64,000 nt of DNA from Hyphomicrobiales bacterium (GCA_021775615.1 JAJFHL010000171.1:9282-73281); one strand, 5' to 3'. Counted from the first letter of the stretch, positions 7,552-27,049 are shown. Program-made: numbers and translations. Notes: generated by a model from the sequence alone, not told the origin.

Positions 7552-8187
7552 ATGCAGCCGACCGTAAAGGCAAACGATCTGGCGCTGCATTTCGCGACGC
7601 CGATGATGCAGCGCGAGTATGACGGGGCAGATGATCTGAACCGGGCCCTGTCGAAGCTGCTTCTCGGCATGGAGAAGAACGACCGCAACAAGGTTTCCGG
7701 CACCACCAACGTTGGCGGCTATCATTCGGACACAAAGCTGTTTGAACGGCCGGAACCGGAAATCGCGGCGTTTCGGACGCTGGTCCAGGAAGCGGTTGTC
7801 GATTTCACGAGCGCCTATATCCAGGAGACCTGTTCGGAGCCGCCATCCAACCTCAAAATGCGCGTCTGGGGCTGGGGCATCGTGATGCGCAAGGGCGATT
7901 CCAACTTTCAGCATGTGCATCCCGACGCGCGGGTCAGCGGCGTCTATTACGTTTCGGTGCCGGGCTGGGAGAAAACCCACTCGCTGGATGATCCGCAGGG
8001 ATCGATCATGTTTTGCGATCCGCGTCCGCGGGCGCATATGAACCGCCACGAAAATCAGCTGACCGAGATCATCGTCGATCCGAAACCCGGGCTTATGCTG
8101 CTGTTCCCGTCCTATTACGAGCACGCCGTAATCCCGTTTCGCGGCGGCGGCGCACGCATTTCAATCGCCTTCAACGGCTATTTTTGA
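7552..8187 (+). CDS. putative 2OG-Fe(II) oxygenase-superfamily protein (TIGR02466/PF13759-like)
   Basis: Motifs HVHPDARVSGVYYV and LLFPSYYEHAV (His-x-Asp...His facial triad pattern); ATG 7552 chosen because upstream part of ORF 7387.. overlaps mdh. Confidence 0.6.
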   Translation: MQPTVKANDLALHFATPMMQREYDGADDLNRALSKLLLGMEKNDRNKVSGTTNVGGYHSDTKLFERPEPEIAAFRTLVQEAVVDFTSAYIQETCSEPPSNLKMRVWGWGIVMRKGDSNFQHVHPDARVSGVYYVSVPGWEKTHSLDDPQGSIMFCDPRPRAHMNRHENQLTEIIVDPKPGLMLLFPSYYEHAVIPFRGGGARISIAFNGYF

Positions 8188-8316
8188 GCGGCGTGGCCCA
8201 CAGGTCCGGTCAGACGGTTGCAGGGGCTTCGAACAGTGTTATAAGGGATTGGCTTTCATGTGGCAGGGGGGAAACCAGCCGGTGCGGCGTATTCCATTTA
8301 TTTCTAAGGCTATCCC

Positions 8317-9485
<1,169 letters not shown>

Positions 9486-9486
<1 letters not shown>

Positions 9487-10361
9487 TGTCAGTTCTCGTC
9501 GACAGCAACACCAAGGTCATCTGCCAGGGCATGACCGGCAACACCGGCACCTTCCACACCCAGCAGGCGATCGAGTACGGCACCAAGATGGTGGGCGGCG
9601 TGACGCCCGGCCGCGGCGGTTCGGAGCATCTCGGCCTGCCCGTGTTCGACACGGTGCACCAGGCGGTCGAGGCGACCGGCGCCAATGCCACGGTGATCTA
9701 TGTGCCGCCGCCCTTCGCCGGCGATGCGATCCTGGAAGCCATTGCCTCGGAGATCCCGCTTGCGGTCTGCATCACCGAGGGCATTCCGGTTCTCGACATG
9801 GTCAAGGTGAAACGTGCCCTGCAGGGCTCAAAGACCCGGCTTGTCGGCCCCAACTGCCCGGGTGTCATCACGCCGGAACAGTGCAAGATCGGCATCATGC
9901 CGGGCCATATTCACAAACCCGGCAAGGTCGGCATCGTTTCGCGCTCGGGTACGCTCACATACGAGGCGGTCGGCCAGACGACCGCGGCAGGCCTTGGACA
10001 GTCGAGTTGCATCGGCATCGGCGGCGATCCGGTCAACGGCACCAACTTCATCGATTGTCTCGACATGTTCCTTGGCGACGATGAGACCGAATCGATCATC
10101 ATGATCGGCGAGATCGGCGGCAGCGCCGAAGAAGACGCGGCCGAATTCATCAAGCAGTCGAAGGTGAAAAAGCCGATCGTCGGCTTCATCGCCGGCGTCA
10201 GCGCTCCCCCGGGGCGCCGCATGGGCCATGCGGGCGCCATCATATCGGGCGGCAAGGGTGGCGCGGAAGACAAGATCGAGGCCATGCGCAGCGCGGGAAT
10301 TACCGTGTCGGACTCGCCGGCCGGACTTGGCACCACCTTGTTAAAGGTATTAAATGGCTGA
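9486..10361 (+). CDS. sucD: succinyl-CoA synthetase alpha subunit
   Basis: [11 protein letters not shown] CoA-binding, phosphohistidine loop (MGHAGAII); ATGA overlap with sucC stop. Confidence 0.95.
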
Positions 10362-10450
10362 TAGCTCACGGAACGTGATGCGGTAGCGGATTTGACGGAC
10401 CAAACTCCCAGAAAAGGCGGGCAGGATTTGGCGATCTTCCCGATGATGTG

Positions 10451-13402
10451 ATGGCAAAGGACCAATCGAACGAGGTGCTTGCCGGCACATCGTTCCTGTA
10501 CGGCGGCAATGCGGCTTTCATCGAAGACCTTTATGCGCGTTACCAGGAAGATCCCTCTTCGGTAGACGCCGAATGGCAGCGCTTTTTCTCCGATCTCAAG
10601 GACAACAAGGACGACGTGGTCTCCAGCGCGCGCGGTGCGTCATGGTCCCGGCAGGACTGGCCGGTGGCGGCGAACGGCGAACTGGTCAGCGCGCTTGACG
10701 GCAACTGGACCGCTTATGAGCGCGAACTCGCCCAGAAGATCGGCGGCAAGGCGAAGAAGACCGGTCAGGATGTTTCGGCAAGCGACGTAAAGAGCGCGGC
10801 CACGGATTCCATCCGTGCCCTGATGATGATCCGCGCCTACCGGGTACGCGGTCATCTCATTGCCGACCTCGATCCGCTGAAACTGCGCGAACAGGCCGGC
10901 CATCCCGAACTGCAGCCCGAAACCTACGGCTTCGGCCCAGAAGACATGGACCGGCCGATCTTCATCGACAATGTGCTCGGCCTCGAGAGCGCCACGCTCA
11001 ATGAGATGCTGACCATTCTGCAGCGAACCTATTGCTCGACGCTTGGCATCGAAGTCACCCATATCTCCGATCCGAAGCAGAAGGCCTGGCTGCAGCAGCG
11101 GGTCGAGGGGCCGGACAAGTCGATTTCCTTCACCCCCGAAGGCAAGAAGGCGATCCTCTACAAGCTGATCGAGGCGGAGGGGTTCGAGCACTTCCTCAAT
11201 GTCAAATATACCGGAACCAAGCGGTTCGGCCTCGATGGCGGCGAGTCGGCAATCCCGGCGCTGGAACAGATCATCAAGCGCGGCGGCGCGCTGGGCGTCA
11301 AGGACATCGTCATCGGCATGCCGCACCGCGGCAGGCTCAACGTGCTGGCCAGCGTCATGGGCAAGCCGTTCCGGGCAATTTTCAACGAGTTCAAGGGCGG
11401 GTCCGCCAAGCCCGACGAGGTCGAGGGTTCCGGCGATGTCAAATACCATCTCGGCACATCATCCGACCGCGAGTTCGACGGCAATAATGTCCACCTTTCC
11501 CTGACCGCCAATCCTTCGCATCTGGAGGTGGTCGATCCGGTGGTCCTCGGCAAAGCGCGGGCCAAGCAGGATCAGCACAAGGACGACACGCGCACGTCGT
11601 GCCTGCCGCTCCTGCTGCACGGCGACGCGGCGTTCGCCGGCCAGGGCGTGGTGGCGGAGTGTCTTGGACTGTCCGGCCTCAAGGGGCACAAGTCAGGCGG
11701 CTCGATCCACTTTATTGTCAACAACCAGATCGGCTTCACAACGAGCCCGATACACTCGCGGTCGTCGCCATATCCGTCCGACGTGGCGAAGATGATCGAG
11801 GCGCCGATCTTCCACGCCAATGGTGATGATCCCGAAGCCGTGGTCTATGCCGCCAAGATCGCCATCGAGTTCCGCCAGGAATTCCGCATTCCCGTGGTTG
11901 TCGACATGATCTGCTACCGGCGCTACGGACACAATGAATCGGATGAACCTTCGTTCACCCAGCCGATCATGTACAAGCGGATCTCGGAACATCCGACCGT
12001 CTCAGAAGTCTACTCCCAGCGCCTTGTTCGCGAAGGCGTCATGACGGAAGACGAAGTCGTCAAGATGAAGGCCGACTTCCGCGCCAATCTGGAACAGGAA
12101 TTCGAGATCTCGGACTCCTACAAGCCGAACAAGGCCGACTGGCTCGATGGGAAATGGTCCGGCCTGACGCGGCCCGAAGACGAAAGCGCACGGCGCGGGC
12201 GGACCGGCGTCGATCTTGGCCGCTTGAAGGATATCGGCCACAAGATCACCGAGATACCTGAGCATTTCAACGCTCATAAAACGCTGAGGCGGGTGATCGG
12301 CAACCGGCGCAAGATGATCGATGAGGGCCAGGGTATCGACTGGGCGATGGCCGAACATCTCGCCTTCGGCACCATTCTCACCGATGGCTATCCGGTGCGC
12401 CTGTCGGGTCAAGACTGTGAGCGCGGCACGTTTTCGCAACGCCATTCGGTGCTCAACGACCAGGTCAATGAGAGCCGTTACATTCCGCTCAACAATATTT
12501 CCGACATTCAGGGCCGCTTCGAGGTCATCAATTCGATGCTTTCGGAGGCGGCGGTGCTCGGATTCGAGTATGGCTACAGCCTTGCCGAGCCAAACGCGCT
12601 GGTGCTGTGGGAAGCGCAGTTCGGCGATTTCGCCAACGGTGCGCAGATGGTCATCGACCAGTTCATCTGCTCGGCCGAACGCAAATGGCTGCGCATGTCG
12701 GGTCTGGTGATGCTGTTGCCGCATGGCTATGAAGGGCAGGGTCCCGAGCACTCCTCGGCTCGGCTGGAGCGCTATCTGCAGTCCTGTGCGGAAGACAACT
12801 GGCAGGTCGCCAACTGCACAACGCCGATGAACTATTTCCACATCCTCCGGCGCCAGCTCAACCGCGACTTCCGCAAGCCGCTGGTGCTGATGACGCCGAA
12901 ATCGCTGCTGCGGCACAAGCGGGCGGTGTCGAGCCTAGACGAATTCGGCCCCGGCACCACCTTTCACCGGGTCCTGTGGGACGATGCCCAGAACAAGTCG
13001 GACGAGCCGATCAAGCTGGTCAAGGACAACAAGATCAGGCGGGTCGTCATGTGCTGCGGCAAGGTCTATTACGACCTCTACGAGGAACGCGAGAAGCGCG
13101 GGATCAACGATGTCTACCTGATGCGGGTGGAGCAGCTCTATCCGTTCCCGGCGCGGGCGATGATCACCGAGCTTGGGCGGTTCCCCAAGGCGGACATGGT
13201 GTGGTGCCAGGAAGAACCCAAGAACATGGGGGCATGGAGCTTCATCGAGCCGAATATCGAATGGGTGCTGGGTCAGATCGGCGCCGAACAGGGCCGGGCC
13301 CGTTATGCCGGCCGGCCGGCATCGGCGGCGACGGCGACCGGGTCGATGGGCAGACATCTGCAGGAACTGCAAGAGTTCCTCGATGAGGCATTTGCGGAGT
13401 GA
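10451..13402 (+). CDS. sucA: 2-oxoglutarate dehydrogenase E1 component
   Basis: ~980 aa, full-length E1o similarity (GDAAFAGQGVV ThDP region, MLLPHGYEGQGPEHSS); ATG 10451 one codon after the track start. Confidence 0.95.
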   Translation: MAKDQSNEVLAGTSFLYGGNAAFIEDLYARYQEDPSSVDAEWQRFFSDLKDNKDDVVSSARGASWSRQDWPVAANGELVSALDGNWTAYERELAQKIGGKAKKTGQDVSASDVKSAATDSIRALMMIRAYRVRGHLIADLDPLKLREQAGHPELQPETYGFGPEDMDRPIFIDNVLGLESATLNEMLTILQRTYCSTLGIEVTHISDPKQKAWLQQRVEGPDKSISFTPEGKKAILYKLIEAEGFEHFLNVKYTGTKRFGLDGGESAIPALEQIIKRGGALGVKDIVIGMPHRGRLNVLASVMGKPFRAIFNEFKGGSAKPDEVEGSGDVKYHLGTSSDREFDGNNVHLSLTANPSHLEVVDPVVLGKARAKQDQHKDDTRTSCLPLLLHGDAAFAGQGVVAECLGLSGLKGHKSGGSIHFIVNNQIGFTTSPIHSRSSPYPSDVAKMIEAPIFHANGDDPEAVVYAAKIAIEFRQEFRIPVVVDMICYRRYGHNESDEPSFTQPIMYKRISEHPTVSEVYSQRLVREGVMTEDEVVKMKADFRANLEQEFEISDSYKPNKADWLDGKWSGLTRPEDESARRGRTGVDLGRLKDIGHKITEIPEHFNAHKTLRRVIGNRRKMIDEGQGIDWAMAEHLAFGTILTDGYPVRLSGQDCERGTFSQRHSVLNDQVNESRYIPLNNISDIQGRFEVINSMLSEAAVLGFEYGYSLAEPNALVLWEAQFGDFANGAQMVIDQFICSAERKWLRMSGLVMLLPHGYEGQGPEHSSARLERYLQSCAEDNWQVANCTTPMNYFHILRRQLNRDFRKPLVLMTPKSLLRHKRAVSSLDEFGPGTTFHRVLWDDAQNKSDEPIKLVKDNKIRRVVMCCGKVYYDLYEEREKRGINDVYLMRVEQLYPFPARAMITELGRFPKADMVWCQEEPKNMGAWSFIEPNIEWVLGQIGAEQGRARYAGRPASAATATGSMGRHLQELQEFLDEAFAE

Positions 13403-16918: not shown

Positions 16919-18004
16919 TCACTTCAGATCCGCGATCAGCTTTTCAAGCGTCTCGCGCCAGGGGGCGATCTCGAGCCCTTTCTCCTTCAGGAAGGCGTGG
17001 TTGAAGATGGTGTCTTCGTAGCGCTCGCCATGGTCGTAGCAGAAGGTAGCGATGAGCTGGCCCTCGCGGCGGTCCTTCATCTTCTGCAGCTCGGTGAGGG
17101 CGCCGAACATCGCCATGCCGGAGCTTGGGCCCATCTCGTAGTTGAACTCGTCCTTGAAGAAGTGGCAGACGGCGATGGCGGCTTCCTGGCGCACTTCGAG
17201 GAAGCGGTCGACCGATGTGCGGATGAAGGACGGCGGTACATAGCCGGGGCTGGCGCCTTCGAGGCAGTGTGAGGCGTCGGAACGTCCGTGCAGGTTGAGG
17301 CCGACATAGTCGGTCAGAATGCCGCCGGCAATGTCGACCCCGACAATGTCGAGATTGAGCTGCCGGTCAGACGCCGCGAAGCGCACCGTGTTGGCGGTGG
17401 TGCCGGTGCCGACCGCGGTCACCACCAGCGATGGCGTGCGACCGACCGCAACGCTGGTTGAGCGCAACATGCGTTCACCCGGCGAATGACGTGTCGGCAG
17501 GGCGCGGACCTCGGCGGAATACTGATCGATCACCGTGTAGCCCGGGCGGATGGTGTAGCTCGCCTCGAGATCGTGTGCGTCGGCCGGATTGTCGGCAACC
17601 GCGAGCTCGCCGCCATGGGCGGTGACGCGCTCCATGGCGGTTGCGGTCAGGTCCTTCGGCACGATGGCGGTGAAGGGCAGTTCCAGCCGGGCGCAGGCAT
17701 AGGCCATGGTTGCCGCCGCACTGCCGCAGGAGCGCTGCACCACGCGCATGCCGGGCTTGAGGGCGTTGCCCCTGAGCTTGAGCCGCAGCATTTCAAGCGC
17801 CAGCCACAGCTTGTTGCCTTCGCCCAGGCTCTGGCGTTCATCCACCAGCGCGATGTCGTTGCCGGTTCCCGATTCCAGCGACACCACTTTCGGCTGCGGA
17901 TTGGAGAGATGAACCTGCTCGATGAGACGCAGTTTTTCCGCCTGCCAGTGGCAGGTGTCGTTGTGAGCGGCCGGTCCGTTCCTGACCGTGCTTCGAATAC
18001 CCAT
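16919..18004 (-). CDS. fold-type II PLP-dependent enzyme, cysteine synthase/CBS family, divergent active-site motifs
   Basis: Aligns by eye to CysK: GEGNKLW (vs GGSVKDR, Lys conserved), LKPGMRVVQRSCGSAA (vs LKPG..TSGNTG), AVGTGTTANTV (vs GVGTGGT), GPSSGMAMFGA (vs G.SSGAA). Confidence 0.7.
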   Translation of the reverse strand: MGIRSTVRNGPAAHNDTCHWQAEKLRLIEQVHLSNPQPKVVSLESGTGNDIALVDERQSLGEGNKLWLALEMLRLKLRGNALKPGMRVVQRSCGSAAATMAYACARLELPFTAIVPKDLTATAMERVTAHGGELAVADNPADAHDLEASYTIRPGYTVIDQYSAEVRALPTRHSPGERMLRSTSVAVGRTPSLVVTAVGTGTTANTVRFAASDRQLNLDIVGVDIAGGILTDYVGLNLHGRSDASHCLEGASPGYVPPSFIRTSVDRFLEVRQEAAIAVCHFFKDEFNYEMGPSSGMAMFGALTELQKMKDRREGQLIATFCYDHGERYEDTIFNHAFLKEKGLEIAPWRETLEKLIADLK

Positions 18005-18194: not shown

Positions 18195-19544
18195 TCAACC
18201 GACCTCTGGAAAAAGCGACATCCCGCGGCCGCCGGACATCAGATACTGGATGATCACGAAGGCGCTGGCATCGAGATGCATGGGTCCCGACAACTGCCGC
18301 ACGCGGACCGATATGGCGGGACCGGGATAGGGGATCGTCAGTTTCTGCCGGTCGGGCCGCGCGATGGTGGCGCTGCCGTTGTCCTGATCGACGATCGTTG
18401 CTTCGCGCAACAGGATCTCGAAATCTTCCGGCCCGAGCTTCATTTCGCCGAGGAGCTGTTCGAGCTGTTGCCACCGGCCGCTCTTGCAGCGCTTGCGCAT
18501 CTCGGTGTCGGCCTCATCGCGTATAATCCGCAGGCAGGTTTCGATGCAGGCCTCCTGCGAAGCAACGCGGTCTTCGCTTTCGGTCTCGATATCGGTGCCG
18601 CAAATGCGCGAGACATGGGTCTGCGAGCCCTCAAGACCGGTGGTTTCCAGATGGGCGGTGAGATGCTGTCTGACGCGCTCGGCGGGGCCGGCATCGGAAA
18701 ACTGGCTGGCCGCCCGGTCGGCAAAGTCGCGGGTCGCGAGCGCGGCGTCGATCGGCCGTTTCGAAGGCCCTCCCAGCACCACCAGTTCGAGCGACAGGAC
18801 CGGATCTCCGAGGCGCAGGGAAATCGGATTCGGGCTGGCATTGAAGAGCGCAAAGGCAAGCTCTCCTTCAAATCCCGGGTCGACCTGGAGTCCGTGCCCG
18901 AGAAAAAGGCCGAGATGGGAGAGACGCGCCATGGGGCCGACGCGAGCCATCATGTTGGCCGGCAGGCGGACGGTTTCCGCGGTCCAGGCGTGCGCGCATT
19001 CGAGCGGTGCGATCTCAATGGCGGCGCCTGCGCGCGCCTCGGACTGCCGCCCCAGGGCATCGACCCGGCCAAGGCTGAGGTCGAGCGAGGCGGCGTTGAT
19101 GTTCGCCTCTATATAGGGATCGATCGAAATCGTGCCGTCGCGAACGGCAGAATGGATTTCGTGATCGGTGAGGATCCGTGTCCGCCCCGCAGCGTCGCGA
19201 GCGACGTCGGCCGCGGAGGCCGGCTCATCGGGAACGGGATCTGGAAGGGGCGTGGCGTCGGATATCCGTTGCGATGCACGGCGGAATTGCTCGCGCAGCC
19301 AGAAGTCGGTCGGCTGGCCGAAGAGTTTGCCGAGCTTGGCCGACATGGCTCGCGAGATCGGCTGGCGGCCACGGACAATGGCGTTGATGGTCTGCCGCGA
19401 CACGCCGGTCAGCTCGGCCAGTTGAAGCTGGTCGAGGCCGCGCTGCTTGAGCTCGTTTTCGAGATGTTCCGCCGCAGAAAGAGCGTCGGCACCGGAGGCG
19501 ATGCCCTCCGCTGTTGCGCTGGTGCTGTCGGAATCTCGTGCCAC
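18195..19544 (-). CDS. three-domain fusion: HigA/XRE-type HTH + dCTP deaminase/dUTPase-fold domain (catalytic residues apparently replaced) + unknown C-terminal domain
   Basis: HTH: LAELTGVSRQTINAIVRGRQPISRAMSAKLGKLFGQPTDFWL; Dcd-fold: ILTDHEIHSAVRDGTISIDP, INAASLDLSLG, VDPGFEGELAFALFN, LRLGDPVLSLELV; last ~165 aa unrecognised. Confidence 0.7.
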   Translation of the reverse strand: MARDSDSTSATAEGIASGADALSAAEHLENELKQRGLDQLQLAELTGVSRQTINAIVRGRQPISRAMSAKLGKLFGQPTDFWLREQFRRASQRISDATPLPDPVPDEPASAADVARDAAGRTRILTDHEIHSAVRDGTISIDPYIEANINAASLDLSLGRVDALGRQSEARAGAAIEIAPLECAHAWTAETVRLPANMMARVGPMARLSHLGLFLGHGLQVDPGFEGELAFALFNASPNPISLRLGDPVLSLELVVLGGPSKRPIDAALATRDFADRAASQFSDAGPAERVRQHLTAHLETTGLEGSQTHVSRICGTDIETESEDRVASQEACIETCLRIIRDEADTEMRKRCKSGRWQQLEQLLGEMKLGPEDFEILLREATIVDQDNGSATIARPDRQKLTIPYPGPAISVRVRQLSGPMHLDASAFVIIQYLMSGGRGMSLFPEVG

Positions 19545-19785: not shown

Positions 19786-20358
19786 TCATGTCCCTCCGGA
19801 ATTGCGTGACGCAACCTCCGCCATGAAACGCTCGCGGATCAGGACCGGGTTCATTTCGATCACCGGCACGTCGATGTTTCCGGACTGGCATTTGGCGATG
19901 ATGATGGTCATGCGGTTGGCATCGAGCGCGTCCTGCAACGTTCCGGCGGTTTCTTCCGCCTCGCACTCGATGACGTGCTCGCAGCCGCAGGCGGTTGCGA
20001 CCTTGGCCAGCGACGTGCGCATGCCGGCATAGGTCGGCTGGTCGCCGGTCGAGCCATAGCTGCCATTGTCGATGATCAGGAGCACGAAGTTGTCGCTCGC
20101 ATTGTTGGCGATCGTCGCCAGGGTCGCCAGATTGGTGAGGACCGATCCGTCGCCCTCGATGGCGACGACCTTGCCGGGCTGGGCAAGGGCCAGGCCGAGC
20201 CCGATCGACGAACACAGGCCCATGGTGCCGAGCATATAGAAGTTGCTCGGGCGGTCGTCGAGCTGGAACAGTTCCTGGGACGGCAGGCCGATATTGCAGA
20301 TGACCAGTCGGTCGGTGATGACCGGGACAATCGACTTCAGGATTTCACTTCTGATCAT
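19786..20358 (-). CDS. comE: sulfopyruvate decarboxylase beta subunit-like (ThDP-binding C-terminal half; phosphonopyruvate decarboxylase not excluded)
   Basis: ThDP motif IEGDGSVLTNL...NN; ~190 aa; start ATG 20358 overlaps comD stop (TGATG). Confidence 0.7.
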   Translation of the reverse strand: MIRSEILKSIVPVITDRLVICNIGLPSQELFQLDDRPSNFYMLGTMGLCSSIGLGLALAQPGKVVAIEGDGSVLTNLATLATIANNASDNFVLLIIDNGSYGSTGDQPTYAGMRTSLAKVATACGCEHVIECEAEETAGTLQDALDANRMTIIIAKCQSGNIDVPVIEMNPVLIRERFMAEVASRNSGGT

Positions 20359-20861
20359 CACGCAGCCCTCCAGAAGCCGGCATCGGTGAGAATTGCGGTT
20401 GGTTTCCTGCACATCCAGGTGTGTTTCAGAATGCCGTCCAGTTCCTCGACGTCATCGCGGTGATGAAAGTGGAACGTCGGTATCGACAACTGGTCCAGCA
20501 GCGCCTTGGTGTGCAGCGCCATCTCGACCTGGCAGGCGACCTTCTCGCCCACTTCGCCGCGGTAGCTGATCAGCATGGGCAGAGGGATCTGGTAAAACTG
20601 AATGAGGGTGACCAGCGTATTGACCGTCACGCCGATCGCCGTGTTCTGCATGACGATGCAGGGCCGCTTGCCGCCCATATAGGCGCCGGCGCACAGGCCC
20701 ATGCCCTCGTCCTCCTTGTTCGAGGGGATGTGCAGAATGGCGTCGTGGTTCTCGATCGCCTCGATCACGCCGGCGAGTTGCTTGCACGGCACGGTCGTCA
20801 CGAAATCGATGTCGTTGTTCACCAGGTCGCCGACGATGCGACCGCTCAAGTCTGAAGACAC
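20358..20861 (-). CDS. comD: sulfopyruvate decarboxylase alpha subunit-like (ThDP pyrimidine-binding half)
   Basis: 167 aa, VTTVPCKQLAGVIEA...NKEDEGMGLCAGAYMGGKRPCIVMQNTAIG; split-subunit arrangement with the following gene. Confidence 0.7.
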   Translation of the reverse strand: MSSDLSGRIVGDLVNNDIDFVTTVPCKQLAGVIEAIENHDAILHIPSNKEDEGMGLCAGAYMGGKRPCIVMQNTAIGVTVNTLVTLIQFYQIPLPMLISYRGEVGEKVACQVEMALHTKALLDQLSIPTFHFHHRDDVEELDGILKHTWMCRKPTAILTDAGFWRAA

Positions 20862-21052
20862 GTTCGAACCTCCTCATGTGTAACCGGCGCGCCGGCGGAG
20901 CGCGATACGCCCGGTTGCCCGTAGGCGGGGTTGTCAAGAGTTCCGCCGGCCGTCGCTTGGGGCGGGCCGGCCGGCGGATCTGGATGGTGGTCGGTCGCCC
21001 GACGTGGATGCGTTGCGGCGGGGGAGAAGAAGAAGACCGCCGGTGTCGCGTC

Positions 21053-22045
21053 CTACTGCGCTTTCTCGTAGAAGCTGGAGTCCACGGTCGAACCGTAGTC
21101 ATCAAGGGCCTTCGAAATCTTGCCTTGCTGCTGGAAAAAGTCAGCCACTTCCTTGAGAAAGAGCTGAACGCCGCCTTCCATCCAACGTTCGCTCAACTGG
21201 TCGTCACGGGTGTAAAAGTCGAACAGGGACAACACGATGTCTGAGTCCCTCTCCGCAAGCCCCGCCGCCTTGGCGATCACCGGCTTGGCCTTGTCCGGCT
21301 CGTCTGCGAGGAACTCGATGGACCTGTCAGTGACCGCCAGAAACTTGGTCACGAGGTCGCCGTGGTCCCTGGCGAAGTCGTTGGTCACCGCGATGACGTC
21401 AAAGGCCCGGATGCCGAGCCGGTCCTGCTCGTTGGCCGACAGCAGTTCCCAGCCCTGACCCTTCATGCGGCGCAGCGGCCCGCCCCACGAGCAGCCCATC
21501 GCCAGCTCGCCGCGCAGGAAAGCGTCGTCGATGTCGTGCGGCGACATGTCGATCACATCGAGCTTGGCGACATCGACGCCAAGGAAGACCAGGGAGCGCA
21601 GCATCTTGTAGTGAGTCACCGTGTTAAGCGGCACCGCGACCTTGCGGCCTTCCAGTTCATGGGCGTTGGCGCGGTCGATGGCTTCCTTCTTGTAGATGAC
21701 GCAGTTGTCGGCGCCGCCGGTGTCGACCGCAACACCCACCACTTTGATCGGTGCGCCATCGGTGACAGCAAGGGCGAAGGGAACGACGCCCATGGAAAAG
21801 GAGATCTGAACTTCACCGGCGACCATGGCCTCGGCCATTTCGACGCCGGTGTTGTAGGCGCGCCATTCGATCTCGACGCCCAGTTCCTTGTCGTACCACT
21901 TCTCGGCCTGGGCCACCTGATTGGCGGTCGGCCATTCCTTGAAATAGGCGACAGTGATCTTGTCCTGCGCCGCAGCGGGGGCCGGAGCGGCCACAGTCCA
22001 CAAAGCTGACGTCAGGGCGAGTATCGACAGCAAGATCCTGTTCAT
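21053..22045 (-). CDS. TauA-like (taurine/NitT family) periplasmic substrate-binding protein, no cognate ABC permease/ATPase in window
   Basis: Signal peptide; ITVAYFKEWPTANQVAQAEKWYDKELGVEIEWRAYNTGVEMAEAMVAGEVQI aligns by eye to E. coli TauA N-terminal lobe. Confidence 0.7.
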   Translation of the reverse strand: MNRILLSILALTSALWTVAAPAPAAAQDKITVAYFKEWPTANQVAQAEKWYDKELGVEIEWRAYNTGVEMAEAMVAGEVQISFSMGVVPFALAVTDGAPIKVVGVAVDTGGADNCVIYKKEAIDRANAHELEGRKVAVPLNTVTHYKMLRSLVFLGVDVAKLDVIDMSPHDIDDAFLRGELAMGCSWGGPLRRMKGQGWELLSANEQDRLGIRAFDVIAVTNDFARDHGDLVTKFLAVTDRSIEFLADEPDKAKPVIAKAAGLAERDSDIVLSLFDFYTRDDQLSERWMEGGVQLFLKEVADFFQQQGKISKALDDYGSTVDSSFYEKAQ

Positions 22046-22119
22046 CTTGTTTCCCTCAGTGGTTTGTGTTCGCCCATCGCCCGGGCCGCCGTCTGCGGCC
22101 GCCGGGTGGCGCCTCGCTC

Positions 22120-22614
22120 TCAGGAGGCGCCGTGAAGGGGAACGATCATTGTCGGCACTGGCGCGCGGCGAAGCACGCTCTTCGACACCGACCCCAGAAA
22201 TGTGTGGGCGATGCCCCGCTCGTGCGATCCCATGATGATGAGGTCGCAGTTGTGCTCCTTGGCCGACTTGAGAATTTCATCCGCCGGGTATGACTCGCAA
22301 ACCGTCGTCGATTTGACCTTGTCGCGCAGTTTGCGGTCCTCTTCGCTCTGCGCGGCCCAGAAAGCTTCCTGCCTTTCGTCGAGCAGCTTGCGGGCGTTTT
22401 CGACCCGCAGGTCCAGGATGTCGTGGCGCTTGTCGCCGCTCTGGATGTAGGTCTGCAGCGTAAACGCGGCGTCGTCGGAGAGTTTCTCCAGGACGTGCAG
22501 CACATGAACGTCCGCTCCGGTCAGCCTGGCCATGAACATGGCGTAGCTGAACGCGGCATTGGAGTTCTGCGACAGATCGGTGCAGTAGAGCAGGTTCTTT
22601 ATTGCGTGTTGCAT
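22120..22614 (-). CDS. universal stress protein (UspA family)
   Basis: From ATG 22614: LYCTDLS...VHVLHV...CDLIIMGSHERG...LGSVSKSVLRRAPVPTMIV (Usp ATP-binding G-2x-G-9x-G(S/T)). Confidence 0.8.
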   Translation of the reverse strand: MQHAIKNLLYCTDLSQNSNAAFSYAMFMARLTGADVHVLHVLEKLSDDAAFTLQTYIQSGDKRHDILDLRVENARKLLDERQEAFWAAQSEEDRKLRDKVKSTTVCESYPADEILKSAKEHNCDLIIMGSHERGIAHTFLGSVSKSVLRRAPVPTMIVPLHGAS

Positions 22615-22645
22615 CGTTACATACCTCGTTGAGCGAGTGTGCCGC

Positions 22646-23986
22646 TCAGTATCCAAAGAACCGCGGCAGCCACAGGACGATCTCCGGGAAGAAGGCGATG
22701 ATGAAGATCGCCACCGCATTGATCGCCGCGAAGGGCAGCGCCTTGATCGATATCTCCTCGATGGAGATGTTTGAGATGCCCGAGGCGATGAACAGATTCT
22801 CGCCAAGCGGCGGGGTCTGGAAGCCGATGCCGAGAGAACAGACCATCACGACACCGAAGTGCACCGGATCGATGCCGAGGCTGTAGGCGATCGGCAGCAG
22901 CACCGGGGTCAGAATGAGAATGGTCGCCAGCGTCTCCATGAACATGCCGACAAACAACAGGAACAAGATCAGCATGGTCCAGATGAAGTAGATGTTGTCG
23001 GTGGCGCTCAGCATGGCCTCGGCAATGATCGCCGGGATCTGGTTTTCCACCAGGAGGCGGCCGAACACGGTTGCGGTGAACAGGATCAGGAGCACACGGC
23101 CGGTGAGCCAGGTTGTGGTCTCAAGCGACCGCACCAGGGCTGCAAAGTCGAGCTCGCGATAGATGAAGAAGCCGACGAACAGCGTGTAGAAGATGGCCAC
23201 GATGGCGGCTTCGGTCGGTGTGAAGAAGCCGGAATAGATGCCGCCAAGGATGACCAGCGGCGCCAGCAGCGCCCAGATTGCCCGGTAAATCACGCACAGG
23301 CTGTTGCGTGCCGAAAAACCTTCGGCCGACCCGCTGTAGCCGCGTTTCTTGCAGACGATGTAGTTCATGATCAGGAGGCTGAAGGAGATCAACAGACCCG
23401 GCAGAACACCGGCGATGAACAGTTTCGGGATCGAGACCGACTGGAAGACACCGAACTTCTCAACCGCTTCGGGCGGCGGTTGCATGCCGAGTGCAGAAAT
23501 CCCGAAGATCACCATTGGGATCGAGGGAGGAATAATGATCCCGAGGCTGCCCGACGAAGCGGTAATGGCCGAAGCGATACCCTTGTCGTAGCCCCGATCG
23601 ATCATCGCCGGGATCATCAGCATGCCAACCGCCGCCGTCGTGGCCGGGCCGGACCCGGAAATCGCACCGAAGAAGAGGCAGGCGAAGACGGTTGCCGCGG
23701 ACATGCCGCCGGTGAAGGGGCCGGCCATGCTTTCCGCGACGTTCACGAGGCGCCGCGATATGCCTGCGGCTTCCATTAGGGCGCCGGCGAGAATAAATGC
23801 CGGCAGAGCCATCAGCGGGAAGGACCCGACCGAGGTGAAGGCGATCTGCACGAACTTGATCGGGTTCTCGTCGAGATAGAGGAACGAGATCAGCGCCGAT
23901 ACGCCGAGCGCGACCGTGATCGGTGCGCCAATCAGCAGGAGCACCAGAAATGTTCCAAACAAAATCAGGACAATTGTCGTTTCCAT
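22646..23986 (-). CDS. TRAP transporter large permease (DctM family)
   Basis: 446 aa polytopic membrane protein with DctM-family sequence throughout. Confidence 0.9.
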   Translation of the reverse strand: METTIVLILFGTFLVLLLIGAPITVALGVSALISFLYLDENPIKFVQIAFTSVGSFPLMALPAFILAGALMEAAGISRRLVNVAESMAGPFTGGMSAATVFACLFFGAISGSGPATTAAVGMLMIPAMIDRGYDKGIASAITASSGSLGIIIPPSIPMVIFGISALGMQPPPEAVEKFGVFQSVSIPKLFIAGVLPGLLISFSLLIMNYIVCKKRGYSGSAEGFSARNSLCVIYRAIWALLAPLVILGGIYSGFFTPTEAAIVAIFYTLFVGFFIYRELDFAALVRSLETTTWLTGRVLLILFTATVFGRLLVENQIPAIIAEAMLSATDNIYFIWTMLILFLLFVGMFMETLATILILTPVLLPIAYSLGIDPVHFGVVMVCSLGIGFQTPPLGENLFIASGISNISIEEISIKALPFAAINAVAIFIIAFFPEIVLWLPRFFGY

Positions 23987-24041
23987 GAAACCGCTCCCTC
24001 GTCACGGACGATGGTCCGCGAGCATTCCCCGCTTCTTGAGT

Positions 24042-24611
24042 TTAAGCCGTGCCGCCGTTCGGCTTCTCGGCGTCCGGTGTTTCCGAACCTTCCTGGATCA
24101 TCTTCTCGACCTCCACCTTGTCGGGATCGCGCACGTCGATGCCCTTGACCAGTTTCAGGTAGTTGACCTGAATGATGCGGATGGTCATCAGGGTGAAGGC
24201 GATCGGCAGGATCAGGTAGACGTACTTCATCGGAACGCCCAGGGTCTGGGACTTCCAGAACAGATTCATCTTGAAGAAGACGAAGGTGAAGCTGAGGTAG
24301 ACAAAATAGACGTTGAAGGCGATCCAGAAGAGATCGGCAAACCCTTCAACGAGGCGTATGCCCTTGGGCCCCAGAAAATTGAGCTGGAAGGTGACCCGGT
24401 TGTGGGCCGACATCCTGGCCGCGTAGCTGGCGCCGAAAAACACGAACCAGACGAACATGTAGGTGGAAAGCTCTTCGGTCCACGAGAACGAGTAGCCGGC
24501 CAACTCACGTGCAAGGATCTGCATGAAGAGGAGGCAGACGAAGACCGCAAGCAGGGTTCGGCAGATGTAGCTTTCGATGTTGTCGAAGAAATGCAGAACC
24601 TTTTTGCTCAT
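24042..24611 (-). CDS. TRAP transporter small permease (DctQ family)
   Basis: 189 aa, four hydrophobic helices, position between DctP and DctM. Confidence 0.8.
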   Translation of the reverse strand: MSKKVLHFFDNIESYICRTLLAVFVCLLFMQILARELAGYSFSWTEELSTYMFVWFVFFGASYAARMSAHNRVTFQLNFLGPKGIRLVEGFADLFWIAFNVYFVYLSFTFVFFKMNLFWKSQTLGVPMKYVYLILPIAFTLMTIRIIQVNYLKLVKGIDVRDPDKVEVEKMIQEGSETPDAEKPNGGTA

Positions 24612-24766
24612 TTTCCGAACTCCCGCCTGTCCGATGAAGCGCGCCTCGCCCGGGTGACCGCGATCCGGTCAGATCCCCAAGATGTTCCCGGCGGGCGCGG
24701 GCTTCAGTTTAGTCAAAACCTGTGGCCGGTGAGCGGCGCGGCGCCGCTCACCGAAATATTCAGTCT

Positions 24767-25780
24767 TTACTGTACCGGGTCGCGGCCGAGAGACTTCAAC
24801 ACCGTGTTGAGCTTCTCAACGCCGCCGATCGAGTCGAAGAACTCAGGCCAGACCGCCTTGGTTGCCGCTTCGATCCAGGCCTTTTCGCCGTCCGCCGGCT
24901 CGTCGATCTGCATGCCCTTGGCAAGCAGGTCTTCCTTGATGGCGGCCTCCGACTTGCGCAGATGCGCAGCCGAATGGAGGGTGGCCTCGAGGCCAGCGTC
25001 AATAACCGCCTTCTGGGTTGCTTCGTCCATGTCCTGGAACACGGATTCCGACACGATCAGGGGCTCGATGGAGAAGATGTAACGGAGCGCCGTGACATAC
25101 TTCTGGACTTCATAGAATTTCATCGAGTGAACCGTCAGGTACGGATTGTCCTGACCATCGACAACCTTCTGCTGCAAAGCGGTGAAGGTTTCCGACCACG
25201 CCATCGGCGTCGGATTGATGCCCCAGGCCTTGTAGGACGCGATCATGATTTCGTTCTTGGGAACGCGGACGATCACGCCTTGCAAGTCTTCCAAGGTCTT
25301 GATCGGCTTTTTCGAGTTGGTCAGCACGCGGAAGCCGGTATAGGTCCAGCCAACGATGCGCACGCCGGCATCACGAATGGTGTTTGCCACCAGTTCCTTG
25401 CCAATGTCGCCCTGGGTGAGCTTCTCGGCATCCTCGAGGCTGAGAATGACGTAGGGCAATGTGAACACGCCGACCGAAGGCGAAAACGGCGTGATGTTGT
25501 TGATGGCGAGCAGGGAGAAGTCGAGGGTGCCGATGGCGGCATCGTTGACCGTGTCCTGCTCACTGCCGAGCTGTCCGTTGAGGAACATCTTGGCGGTGTG
25601 TTTGCCCCCGGTCTTTGCTTCAAAGAGCTCAACGAATTTGGTGCCAAGCTCGTGCTGGGCGCTGCCATGGGCGTCGCCCACGGCCATTTTGAAGTTCTTC
25701 GCTGTTGCACCGCCGACCACAGTCAGCGAAAGGGCCGTAGCGAGGCAGGCCGCAGCCGCCAGTTTTCCTGCGAGTTTCAT
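24767..25780 (-). CDS. TRAP transporter substrate-binding protein (DctP family)
   Basis: Signal peptide, 337 aa, DctP-like sequence; first gene of the minus-strand array. Confidence 0.85.
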   Translation of the reverse strand: MKLAGKLAAAACLATALSLTVVGGATAKNFKMAVGDAHGSAQHELGTKFVELFEAKTGGKHTAKMFLNGQLGSEQDTVNDAAIGTLDFSLLAINNITPFSPSVGVFTLPYVILSLEDAEKLTQGDIGKELVANTIRDAGVRIVGWTYTGFRVLTNSKKPIKTLEDLQGVIVRVPKNEIMIASYKAWGINPTPMAWSETFTALQQKVVDGQDNPYLTVHSMKFYEVQKYVTALRYIFSIEPLIVSESVFQDMDEATQKAVIDAGLEATLHSAAHLRKSEAAIKEDLLAKGMQIDEPADGEKAWIEAATKAVWPEFFDSIGGVEKLNTVLKSLGRDPVQ

Positions 25781-26007
25781 TCCACTCCTCCATTAATTTC
25801 AAAGGGACAGCCGACTTCCCAAGGCGAATTAAGGCCTCAAGGCTTGGCGGTATAAAGGCGCAATAGAAAAAGTATCTGCACCCTCCCTGCGACGGCCCGA
25901 CTGTTCTTGCGGGTTACAGGCCCTGCACTTGGCGTGACTTGCGTTCCCCATCTGGACCTTATGACGCACCCTAGCATCAATAAGGGGTTTTATGTAGAGT
26001 GATTGAC

Positions 26008-26035
26008 TGAAAGCAAAGTTTCATAAAGCTGAAAC
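26008..26035. promoter_or_regulatory. alternating inverted half-sites TGAAA-N6-TTTCA-N6-TGAAA, candidate LysR-type operator
   Basis: Read directly: TGAAAGCAAAGTTTCATAAAGCTGAAAC, 9 nt upstream of the LysR start in the divergent intergenic region. Confidence 0.3.
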
Positions 26036-26043
26036 ATTAGACC

Positions 26044-26979
26044 ATGGCTCACAAAGCTCCGCTCGGCCGCATCAGCGACGTCGACATCCGATTGCTCCGG
26101 GTGTTCCATGCCGTGGTGGCGTGCCGTGGCCTGTCGGCGGCCGAAGTCGAGCTCAACATTGGAAGATCGACCATCAGCCGGCACCTCTCCGACCTCGAGT
26201 TGCGGGTCGGCGTCAAGCTGTGCGAGCGCGGTCCGGCAGGGTTCTCCCTGACCCCCGAGGGCGAACGGGTCCATGAAGCGTCATCGGGACTGTTCTCCGC
26301 CATCAACACCTTTCAGACCCAGATTGACGACGTCCACCTGCGTCTCACCGGGCATCTGGAGCTGGCCCTTTTCGACAAGACGATTTCCAATCCCGAAGCG
26401 TGCCTGCCGCAGGTTTTCCGGCGCTTTGACCAAATCGCGCCGAAAGTGACGGTGGGTATTCATGTGGAACCGATCAACATCATTGAAAGCGGCGTTCTGA
26501 CGGGCCGCTTCAATGTCGGGATCATCCCGGTGCAGCGTGAAGGCGGAGGAGTGGTCTCCTTCCCCTTGTACAATGAACAGATGTATCTCTATTGCAGCGA
26601 CGGCCATCCGCTGTTTCACGAGGAGGATGCCAACATTCGGCAGGAGGATGTTCGTCAGCACAAATATGTCGGCATCGGCTTTCACTCGCCAAACATGATC
26701 GTGAGCCATCAGCTGCGGCTGACACGCCATGCGGAGGTCTATGACGAACATGCCCTTGCGGCCCTCGTCCTGTCCGGGCGTTACCTTGGATTTCTGCCGG
26801 ATCACTATGCCGAGCGTTTCGCCAGTGAGGGCGCCATGCGGCCGGTGCGCCCCGATGTCTATCAGTATCAGAGCAATCACGTTGTCATCCTGGCGCGGAC
26901 ACCGAAGCCGTCACGCCTGGTCGAAACGTTCGTTGGATGTCTCCTGGGCGCTCACGGCAAGGCTGTGCCGACACTCTGA
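26044..26979 (+). CDS. LysR-family transcriptional regulator
   Basis: N-terminal wHTH (DIRLLRVFHAVVACRGLSAAEVELNIGRSTISRHLSDLE) plus LysR substrate-binding domain; divergent from the TRAP array. Confidence 0.9.
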   Translation: MAHKAPLGRISDVDIRLLRVFHAVVACRGLSAAEVELNIGRSTISRHLSDLELRVGVKLCERGPAGFSLTPEGERVHEASSGLFSAINTFQTQIDDVHLRLTGHLELALFDKTISNPEACLPQVFRRFDQIAPKVTVGIHVEPINIIESGVLTGRFNVGIIPVQREGGGVVSFPLYNEQMYLYCSDGHPLFHEEDANIRQEDVRQHKYVGIGFHSPNMIVSHQLRLTRHAEVYDEHALAALVLSGRYLGFLPDHYAERFASEGAMRPVRPDVYQYQSNHVVILARTPKPSRLVETFVGCLLGAHGKAVPTL

Positions 26980-26993
26980 GTAATTCGAATACG

Positions 26994-27020
26994 AAAAAAC
27001 CCGGGCCAAGGGGGCCCGGG
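26994..27020 (-). terminator. rho-independent terminator for 27050..27319
   Basis: 8-bp GC stem CCCGGGCC/GGCCCGGG (27000-27007/27013-27020) followed on the minus strand by TTTTTT. Confidence 0.7.
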
Positions 27021-27049
27021 CTCCAAACAAGGTATCCAAGAAACGCGAT

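Follow-up and report, generated by a model that had tools for sequence, protein, structure and literature searches.

We analysed a 64,000-nucleotide (nt) window of a Hyphomicrobiales bacterium genome (GCA_021775615.1, JAJFHL010000171.1:9282-73281), in which positions 19786-26979 hold an array of seven genes, dctP, dctQ, dctM, usp, a tauA-like gene, comD and comE, opposite a divergent lysR gene. [quoted passage not shown] The first-pass annotation had treated the seven genes as one sulfopyruvate-route pathway lacking its expected partners. Neither part of that description is supported: the cassette occurs without comDE and is linked elsewhere to a DAO-family oxidoreductase (DAO) and sulfoacetaldehyde acetyltransferase (Xsc), and the partners are present in the same genome, Xsc on contig C192, TauE and Pta on contig C41.

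Genes were called from an open reading frame listing together with Pfam and NCBIfam scans of the window. The layout described earlier was confirmed: seven same-strand genes with gaps of 31-191 nt (155, 55, 31, 74 and 191 nt, from dctP to comD) face the divergent lysR, and the sequence bears out the 1-nt overlap of comD and comE, in which a single base of the motif TGATG is common to the TGA of comD and the ATG of comE. The gene order of the array is not due to chance, because the five-gene cassette order recurs in 17 other loci, and the tauA-like/comD junction recurs in two (L032 and L088).

The TRAP-usp-tauA-like cassette is an independent conserved unit. The order dctP-dctQ-dctM-usp-tauA-like is kept in 17 other close loci of Alpha- and Gammaproteobacteria, the hosts being Kiloniellaceae, Pelagibius, Minwuiaceae, Rhodospirillales, Geminicoccales and the gammaproteobacterial Arenicellales. 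Usp is encoded between dctM and the tauA-like gene in all 17 cassette loci, the DctM proteins of cassettes from other orders have 78-92% identity, and many TauA-like homologues share 70-90% identity, their gene being the last of the cassette in all close loci examined except L052. A divergent LysR orthologue accompanies the cassette, with 85% identity in L032 and 62-66% in seven further loci (L037/L040, which represent one Pelagibius place, L039, L042, L043, L044 and L045). The regulator is a divergent LysR in the Pelagibius/Kiloniellaceae/Minwuiaceae group, and of MocR/GntR type elsewhere. A search of 40 same-order relatives found no close orthologue of the tauA-like gene, and among 400 genomes of the class a single one has it. 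From this, the distribution of the cassette is patchy, and lateral spread is probable.

Outside this lineage, the cassette is repeatedly tied to DAO and Xsc. In L038, L050, L051, L054 and G142, the full cassette is accompanied by DAO and Xsc genes, the latter encoding proteins 82-87% identical to the C192 Xsc; in these five and in L052, which make six independent loci, the tauA-like gene adjoins a DAO gene (82-88% identity to the C192 copy). The DAO, Xsc and PF03601 genes directly precede the cassette in the first four of these loci, and the order in G142 is cassette, SnoaL, DAO, Xsc. L052 (an Arenicellales chromosome, 7567-12656) consists of DAO, cupin, tauA-like and PF03601 (TauZ-like) genes, with no TRAP, ABC (ATP-binding cassette) or Xsc gene, and this block is flanked by insertion sequence elements (IS110 and rve transposases). 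Of five complete chromosomes searched in their entirety, four have the full cassette, and the fifth, G043 (the genome of L052), has the tauA-like gene only. All five encode a true Xsc and no ComE orthologue, and G142 likewise is without a ComE orthologue. Because taurine dehydrogenase and a taurine TRAP transporter are an established pair, and because DAO is repeatedly followed by Xsc with no decarboxylase between them, the most economical substrate for the cassette would be taurine or an N-substituted taurine. The sponge-taurine paper PMC10356861 contains nothing on TRAP or ComDE.

The solute-binding proteins were compared to solved structures. DctP (24767-25780, minus strand; PF03480, 231 bits) falls in an organosulfonate-binding subgroup. 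Its best solved relative is Bilophila HpsK, which binds S-2,3-dihydroxypropane-1-sulfonate (S-DHPS; 24GH/24GG, 233 bits), and the scores against the apo Cereibacter protein 4PFR and the isethionate binder IseP (8T9T) are 217 and 140 bits, respectively. The membrane subunits are encoded by dctQ (24042-24611, minus; PF04290, 98 bits) and dctM (22646-23986, minus; PF06808, 351 bits; TIGR00786, 396 bits), and both TIGR00787 and TIGR00786 exceed their cut-offs in the TRAP system. Residues R151, R172, N95 and W195 of DctP align with Arg152, Arg173, Asn95 and Trp196 of HpsK, that is, with the sulfonate anchors and the capping Trp (the sulfonate-binding residues of HpsK are described in PMC13335735, and the isethionate binder IseP in PMC11668362). 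The earlier suggestion that the locus concerns organosulfonates is supported, and DctP retains the anchors of solved sulfonate-binding TRAP proteins; it should be noted that the two anchor Arg residues are also common in carboxylate binders and are permissive rather than proof. His42 and Trp238, which read the DHPS hydroxyls in HpsK, are replaced by Gln42 and Ser237. No PF00815 or glycyl-radical-enzyme gene is present in the Pfam-annotated cassette loci.

The TauA-like protein (21053-22045, minus; 330 amino acids with a signal peptide) has the TauA/SsuA fold and is the sole TauA/SsuA homologue in the genome. It scores 146.8 against TIGR01729 (cut-off 304.25), 123 against NF008553 (cut-off 490) and 111 bits against E. 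coli TauA (6SSY). In a pairwise alignment, the TauA contacts Asp205, Gly61, Gly79 and Trp176 are kept, and Glu106, Gln30 and Thr132 are replaced by Asp, Phe and Val, respectively; Asp205 of E. coli TauA is the amine-binding residue responsible for taurine selectivity (PMC6906117). Neither TauB nor TauC is encoded near the tauA-like gene in any of 18 loci, and the Pfam-annotated loci contain no ABC genes within the cassette. For the most part the locus is ordinary; its unusual part is the cassette itself, in which the TRAP genes are always accompanied by Usp and by an ABC-fold TauA-like binder lacking an ABC partner. That this binder is a working part of the TRAP system, which either delivers substrate to DctQM or serves as a periplasmic taurine sensor or buffer, appears rather doubtful; if true, the cassette would represent a so far undescribed dual-binding-protein TRAP system with a second binder of ABC-type fold.

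The product of usp (22120-22614, minus; 164 amino acids; PF00582, 101 bits), whose gene follows dctM after 31 nt, has MJ0577 (1MJH) as its best full-length solved match. TeaD was not among its solved relatives at E <= 1e-5; a relationship to TeaD was therefore rejected for want of sequence support, the likeness being one of position only.

The second module comprises comD (20358-20861, minus; 167 amino acids, with a GTG start and GAGGAGG 5' of it) and comE (19786-20358, minus; 190 amino acids). These adjacent genes encode the pyrimidine-binding half (PF02776) and the diphosphate-binding half (PF02775), respectively, of a thiamine diphosphate (ThDP) enzyme. The pair was classified with equivalog hidden Markov models of NCBIfam: ComD scores 152.6 against TIGR03845 (cut-off 147.95) and ComE scores 230.9 against TIGR03846 (cut-off 221.5), small margins in both cases. 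The TIGR03846 cut-off was exceeded in just 2 of 14 control genomes. The ThDP motif GDG-X26-N is intact in residues 69-98 of ComE (GDG 69-71, N98), and the activating Glu of ComD is E52, within NKEDEGMG. The best interpretation of ComDE is a split sulfopyruvate decarboxylase, as had been proposed, and not a phosphonopyruvate decarboxylase, since both equivalog cut-offs are passed, no pepM gene was found, and genes for TauE or 2-hydroxyacid dehydrogenase adjoin those of close homologues.

The first-pass annotation had also considered phosphonopyruvate or another 2-oxo acid as the substrate, in which case the locus would not be about sulfopyruvate. The narrow margins over the equivalog cut-offs are compatible with such an activity, and among solved structures ComE matches best, albeit at 74 bits only, a protein whose annotation is putative phosphonopyruvate decarboxylase beta subunit. 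However, the phosphonopyruvate decarboxylase model TIGR03297 gives 85 for ComD and 134.8 for ComE, far under its cut-off of 312.5, and a search of the whole genome, which is 96.7% complete, found no phosphoenolpyruvate mutase (best match 42.6 bits, cut-off 319.55). Moreover, close ComDE homologues adjoin TauE and co-occur with Xsc. Given the low scores of both subunits and the lack of the mutase, the phosphonopyruvate route was rejected, and a substrate other than sulfopyruvate is, in general, highly improbable.

A second split ThDP decarboxylase-like pair, with approximately 30% identity to ComD/ComE, was observed on contig C241 (C241:23528-24555; L063:5529-6643). The best match of its beta part is PRK06163, under the sulfopyruvate and phosphonopyruvate cut-offs, and the alpha-like part lies in another frame, with a stop within the tblastn range. 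Paralogues resembling this pair (33-44% identity) are found in the cassette-bearing genomes G041-G045.

The comDE genes are a separate, mobile two-gene unit, found elsewhere by itself or beside TauE, 2-hydroxyacid dehydrogenase, LysE or MFS genes. Close homologues of ComE are numerous (75-92% identity), and their contexts vary: synteny like that of the window (L032); comDE followed by LysE; a PLP (pyridoxal phosphate) enzyme gene, then comDE and an MFS gene; an aminotransferase gene, then glyoxalase, SDR and comDE; and, seen twice, 2-hydroxyacid dehydrogenase, GntR, comD, comE and TauE. The context in G007 was discarded as uninformative, with only broken beta-lactamase-family genes. A usp-like gene of weak similarity, with 27-44% identity over part of the length, was noted immediately upstream of comD in L099 (G260), L101 (G303) and L103 (G138), so that usp-comDE adjacency may recur independently of the TRAP cassette. 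A ComE orthologue was detected in 9 of 400 class-sample genomes, two of which have a 2-hydroxyacid dehydrogenase gene directly upstream of comD. Xsc was found in 8 of the 9 ComE-positive genomes, compared to 37 of the 391 ComE-negative ones (Fisher p ~1e-7, with the related genomes not being independent), and in all eight genomes carrying both genes, xsc is at a different locus from comE. Accordingly, unlinked comDE and Xsc are the norm.

The same is seen here. In family searches across the genome, contig C81 had no hit for Xsc, sulfolactate dehydrogenase, SuyAB or the sulfite exporter, in agreement with the absence of these partners from the window noted at first. When the whole genome was searched for the partners named in the first-pass annotation, xsc and a pta-like gene were found, and suyAB, slcD, an hpsN context and pepM were not. 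On contig C192, the gene for Xsc (949 bits) lies directly downstream of one for a DAO-family FAD oxidoreductase, the best model for which is a putative aminophosphonate oxidoreductase family; TauE-family and PTA_PTB genes are adjacent on contig C41. The SuyB family (PF04295) had no match in the genome, and the best Ldh_2 gene scored 174.7 against the L-sulfolactate dehydrogenase model (cut-off 500). SlcD and ComC were not supported either: of two Ldh_2 genes, the first lies in a urate/ureidoglycolate cluster, and the second matches a generic malate/lactate/ureidoglycolate dehydrogenase model. A DHPS route was also unsupported: the genome has two hisD-family genes, the first with the murA-type surroundings of hisD and the second next to agmatinase-like and DegT-like genes, and no hpsOP or TRAP genes are near either of them. 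As the source of sulfopyruvate, transamination of cysteate by a general aminotransferase would be our simplest guess.

Two of these unlinked loci were recorded separately. On contig C192 (C192:8076-11295; L061), the genes for DAO (467 amino acids) and Xsc form an isolated two-gene unit among patatin, amidase and acyl-CoA ligase genes, and this DAO is a candidate single-subunit taurine or N-alkyltaurine oxidoreductase. Its counterparts in Geminicoccales, Arenicellales and other metagenome-assembled genomes, a pair of 82-88% identity, adjoin the TRAP cassette. On contig C41 (C41:11200-12973; L074:5201-6974), the TauE-family gene stands beside a short PTA_PTB gene, unlinked from xsc; the pair is likely to provide sulfite export and acetyl phosphate handling for Xsc.

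The principal alternative is that the array is, after all, one dedicated pathway, in which the TRAP transporter and the TauA-like binder import a C3 sulfonate with a carboxylate (L- or D-cysteate, sulfolactate or sulfopyruvate), which is converted to sulfopyruvate, for example, by the action of DAO on cysteate, and then processed by co-transcribed ComDE and by Xsc. Several observations fit this explanation: all array genes lie on the same strand under one divergent LysR, DctP retains its sulfonate anchors, the acidic residues of the TauA-like protein would suit an amino group such as that of cysteate, and deamination of an amino acid, for instance cysteate, is in principle within the reach of a DAO-family enzyme. 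The tauA-like/comD junction is preserved in the window, L032 and L088, with no clear terminator between the genes. In the window, the 191-nt gap contains a GC-rich hairpin (20942-20976, minus; from folding) with a stem of 10-11 base pairs, followed by TTGACA, and a hairpin is found at the same place in L032 and L088, with different stem sequences. This hairpin marks the module boundary and may act as a partial terminator or an RNA-stabilising structure. Conversely, G142 and four of the five complete chromosomes carry the cassette, at 70-90% identity, but no ComE orthologue (the fifth, G043, having only the tauA-like gene); the enzymes linked to the cassette are DAO and then directly Xsc, no decarboxylase intervening; neither a sulfolactate dehydrogenase nor an hpsN context was detected in this genome; and comDE is mobile as a two-gene unit. 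On balance, we consider a single dedicated pathway unlikely. It is likewise rather doubtful that the attached comDE signals transport of an amino-C3-sulfonate, for instance cysteate, by the cassette of this lineage.

The join of two modules, which we favour, nevertheless has to be weighed against a number of points. The gap at the conserved tauA-like/comD junction is just ~70-90 nt in L088, the gap hairpin has no T-tract in the window, L032 or L088, and the window hairpin was not called by the terminator scan; comDE and the cassette may thus share a transcript, as expected of a single pathway. DctP has a distal pocket unlike that of every solved sulfonate binder, and Gln30 and Thr132 of TauA are replaced by Phe and Val in the pairwise alignment with the TauA-like protein. 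The case for taurine draws only on the neighbourhoods of other genomes and on a few residues aligned at ~30-45% identity. No enzyme that makes sulfopyruvate was recognised in the genome, given the Ldh_2 score cited above and the lack of an hpsNOP context, and the genome itself is a draft (6.26 Mb, 392 contigs, 96.7% complete).

Beyond comE, the window encodes a regulator with a helix-turn-helix and a dCTP-deaminase fold (HTH-DCD; 18195-19544, minus) and a CysK-like PLP enzyme (16919-18004, minus), both identified with Pfam and NCBIfam models and located between comE and lpdA. Three loci, the window, L032 (~92% identity) and L088 (~83%), all have the tauA-like gene, comD, comE, HTH-DCD and the PLP enzyme beside lpdA, and the cassette/comDE junction is confined to this lineage. 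Because L087 carries HTH-DCD and the PLP enzyme alone beside lpdA, with no cassette and no comDE, whereas the window, L032 and L088 carry more, the sequence comparison divides the locus into three modules: (i) lysR and the cassette; (ii) comDE; (iii) HTH-DCD and the PLP enzyme. In L088, the last pair is followed by SDR, GST and FMO-like genes. It should be noted that lpdA, sucA, sucB and sucD are split into many short called genes in L087 (ENA contig_39350), which looks like a frameshift-rich long-read assembly and not like pseudogenes, so that gene absence in this locus needs care.

The PLP enzyme, for which nine close homologues were found and which is therefore rare, had been described as divergent and as the only nearby candidate partner of ComDE. 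In fact, it lies downstream of the array on the same strand, and it belongs with HTH-DCD in the third module. As a partner of ComDE it was rejected, given that the pair with HTH-DCD occurs without comDE in L087 and that the PLP enzyme adjacent to comDE in L035 is not homologous to it. The same observations bear on a biosynthetic explanation, under which ComDE and a cysteate-synthase-like PLP enzyme would use sulfite and a serine derivative to make sulfoacetaldehyde and, from it, taurine or isethionate, with the cassette as a mere neighbour. In its favour, the window, L032 and L088 have comDE, HTH-DCD and the PLP enzyme side by side, an exporter gene (LysE, MFS or TauE) is directly downstream in several other ComDE loci, and the PLP enzyme matches the CysK-type cysteate synthase model, but weakly, with 44 bits against a cut-off of 600. 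The occurrence of the pair without comDE, the non-homologous enzyme of L035 and the fact that the presence of ComE follows that of the catabolic enzyme Xsc all point in the opposite direction, and we regard biosynthesis as very unlikely.

The control signals of the array were examined as well. The lysR gene (26044-26979, plus; PF00126 and PF03466) is separated from the divergent dctP by a 263-nt control region (25781-26043, no strand assigned, read directly from the sequence). Two inverted repeats near the lysR start, ATAA-N6-TTAT and TTTCA-N5-TGAAA, are possible LysR boxes. A consensus promoter scan of this 263-nt region returned nothing, and the promoter/terminator consensus and Rfam scans of the locus were uninformative. 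Housekeeping genes flank the array, lpdA at one end and, at the opposite end, xerC, a transaldolase-family gene and priA. Just downstream of lysR, at 26991-27049 (minus), there is a strong GC-rich hairpin with a T-run, which has a RybB-like Rfam score of 28.5 bits (gathering threshold 40) and is probably the lysR/xerC terminator.

Under the favoured join of two modules, the system might operate as follows. Module A, the lysR <> dctP-dctQ-dctM-usp-tauA-like cassette, would be a horizontally spread device for uptake of a C2 aminosulfonate, the likeliest being taurine or one of its N-substituted forms. Periplasmic DctP would bind the sulfonate and pass it to DctQM for ion-driven import, with Usp probably modulating transport by analogy with TeaD and the TauA-like protein acting as a putative second periplasmic binder. 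In the cytoplasm, the DAO-family amine oxidoreductase encoded beside xsc on C192 would deaminate the substrate to sulfoacetaldehyde. Module B, comDE, would decarboxylate 3-sulfopyruvate, supplied by cysteate transamination or sulfolactate oxidation, to the same sulfoacetaldehyde. The two streams would meet at the C192 Xsc, yielding acetyl phosphate and sulfite, which the Pta-like enzyme and the TauE-family exporter of C41 may then deal with.

Taurine, cysteate, sulfolactate and DHPS are major currencies of carbon and sulfur exchange in marine and host-associated settings, and transporter specificity is the weakest element of genome-based predictions for these compounds. A recurrent five-gene cassette tied to DAO and Xsc, many carriers of which are uncultured, is a testable candidate for a widespread taurine-type importer. 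Furthermore, because unlinked partners are normal, comDE without an adjoining xsc or slcD should not be taken for an incomplete or exotic pathway.

Taurine TRAP transporters are among the known systems that come closest to the array. In the work of Cook and Denger, the taurine TRAP transporter and taurine dehydrogenase were reportedly named TauKLM and TauXY. The cassette DctPQM is linked, in other genomes, to DAO and Xsc, similar to the established arrangement in Rhodobacter, Paracoccus and Roseobacter, where taurine dehydrogenase goes together with a taurine TRAP transporter (PMC3141670), and the MocR/GntR-type regulator of some cassette loci is another shared feature. However, the cassette has two extra conserved genes, usp and that for the ABC-fold TauA-like binder, and in the window it is under LysR and unlinked from DAO-Xsc. 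HpsK (DHPS; 24GC-24GH) and IseP (8T9T), the best solved relatives, have in common with DctP the Arg/Arg/Asn anchor and the capping Trp; the differences from HpsK are the Gln and Ser that replace His42 and Trp238, and the lack of an hpsNOP or glycyl-radical-enzyme neighbourhood. TauA of TauABC (E. coli 6SSY, PMC6906117) is of the same fold and family as the TauA-like protein, with common Asp205, Gly and Trp contacts, whereas the TauA-like protein is under the equivalog cut-off, has no ABC partner and has both Gln30 and Thr132 replaced.

The passage of PMC9006882 that cites Schweikhard 2010 describes TeaD as a Usp whose gene follows teaABC and which, in Halomonas elongata, modulates the TRAP transporter for ectoine. 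The window usp likewise comes immediately after the gene for the TRAP large subunit, within one operon; however, its product is not a close sequence relative of TeaD, and a regulatory role is suggested by analogy. Finally, ComDE is known from archaeal coenzyme M synthesis (PMC3787637), and the route from ComDE to Xsc has been published (PMC11382572; bioRxiv 10.1101/2024.12.10.627767). Similar to ComDE (EC 4.1.1.79) of the bacterial sulfolactate/DHPS Xsc pathway, for example, in Roseovarius and Jannaschia (PMC11382572), the window pair is a split alpha/beta ThDP enzyme with overlapping genes that passes both equivalog models, in a genome that also encodes Xsc. It differs in that no slcD, slcC, comC or hpsNOP genes are adjacent or recognisable in the genome, and in that comDE is joined here to the 3' end of a taurine-type TRAP cassette.

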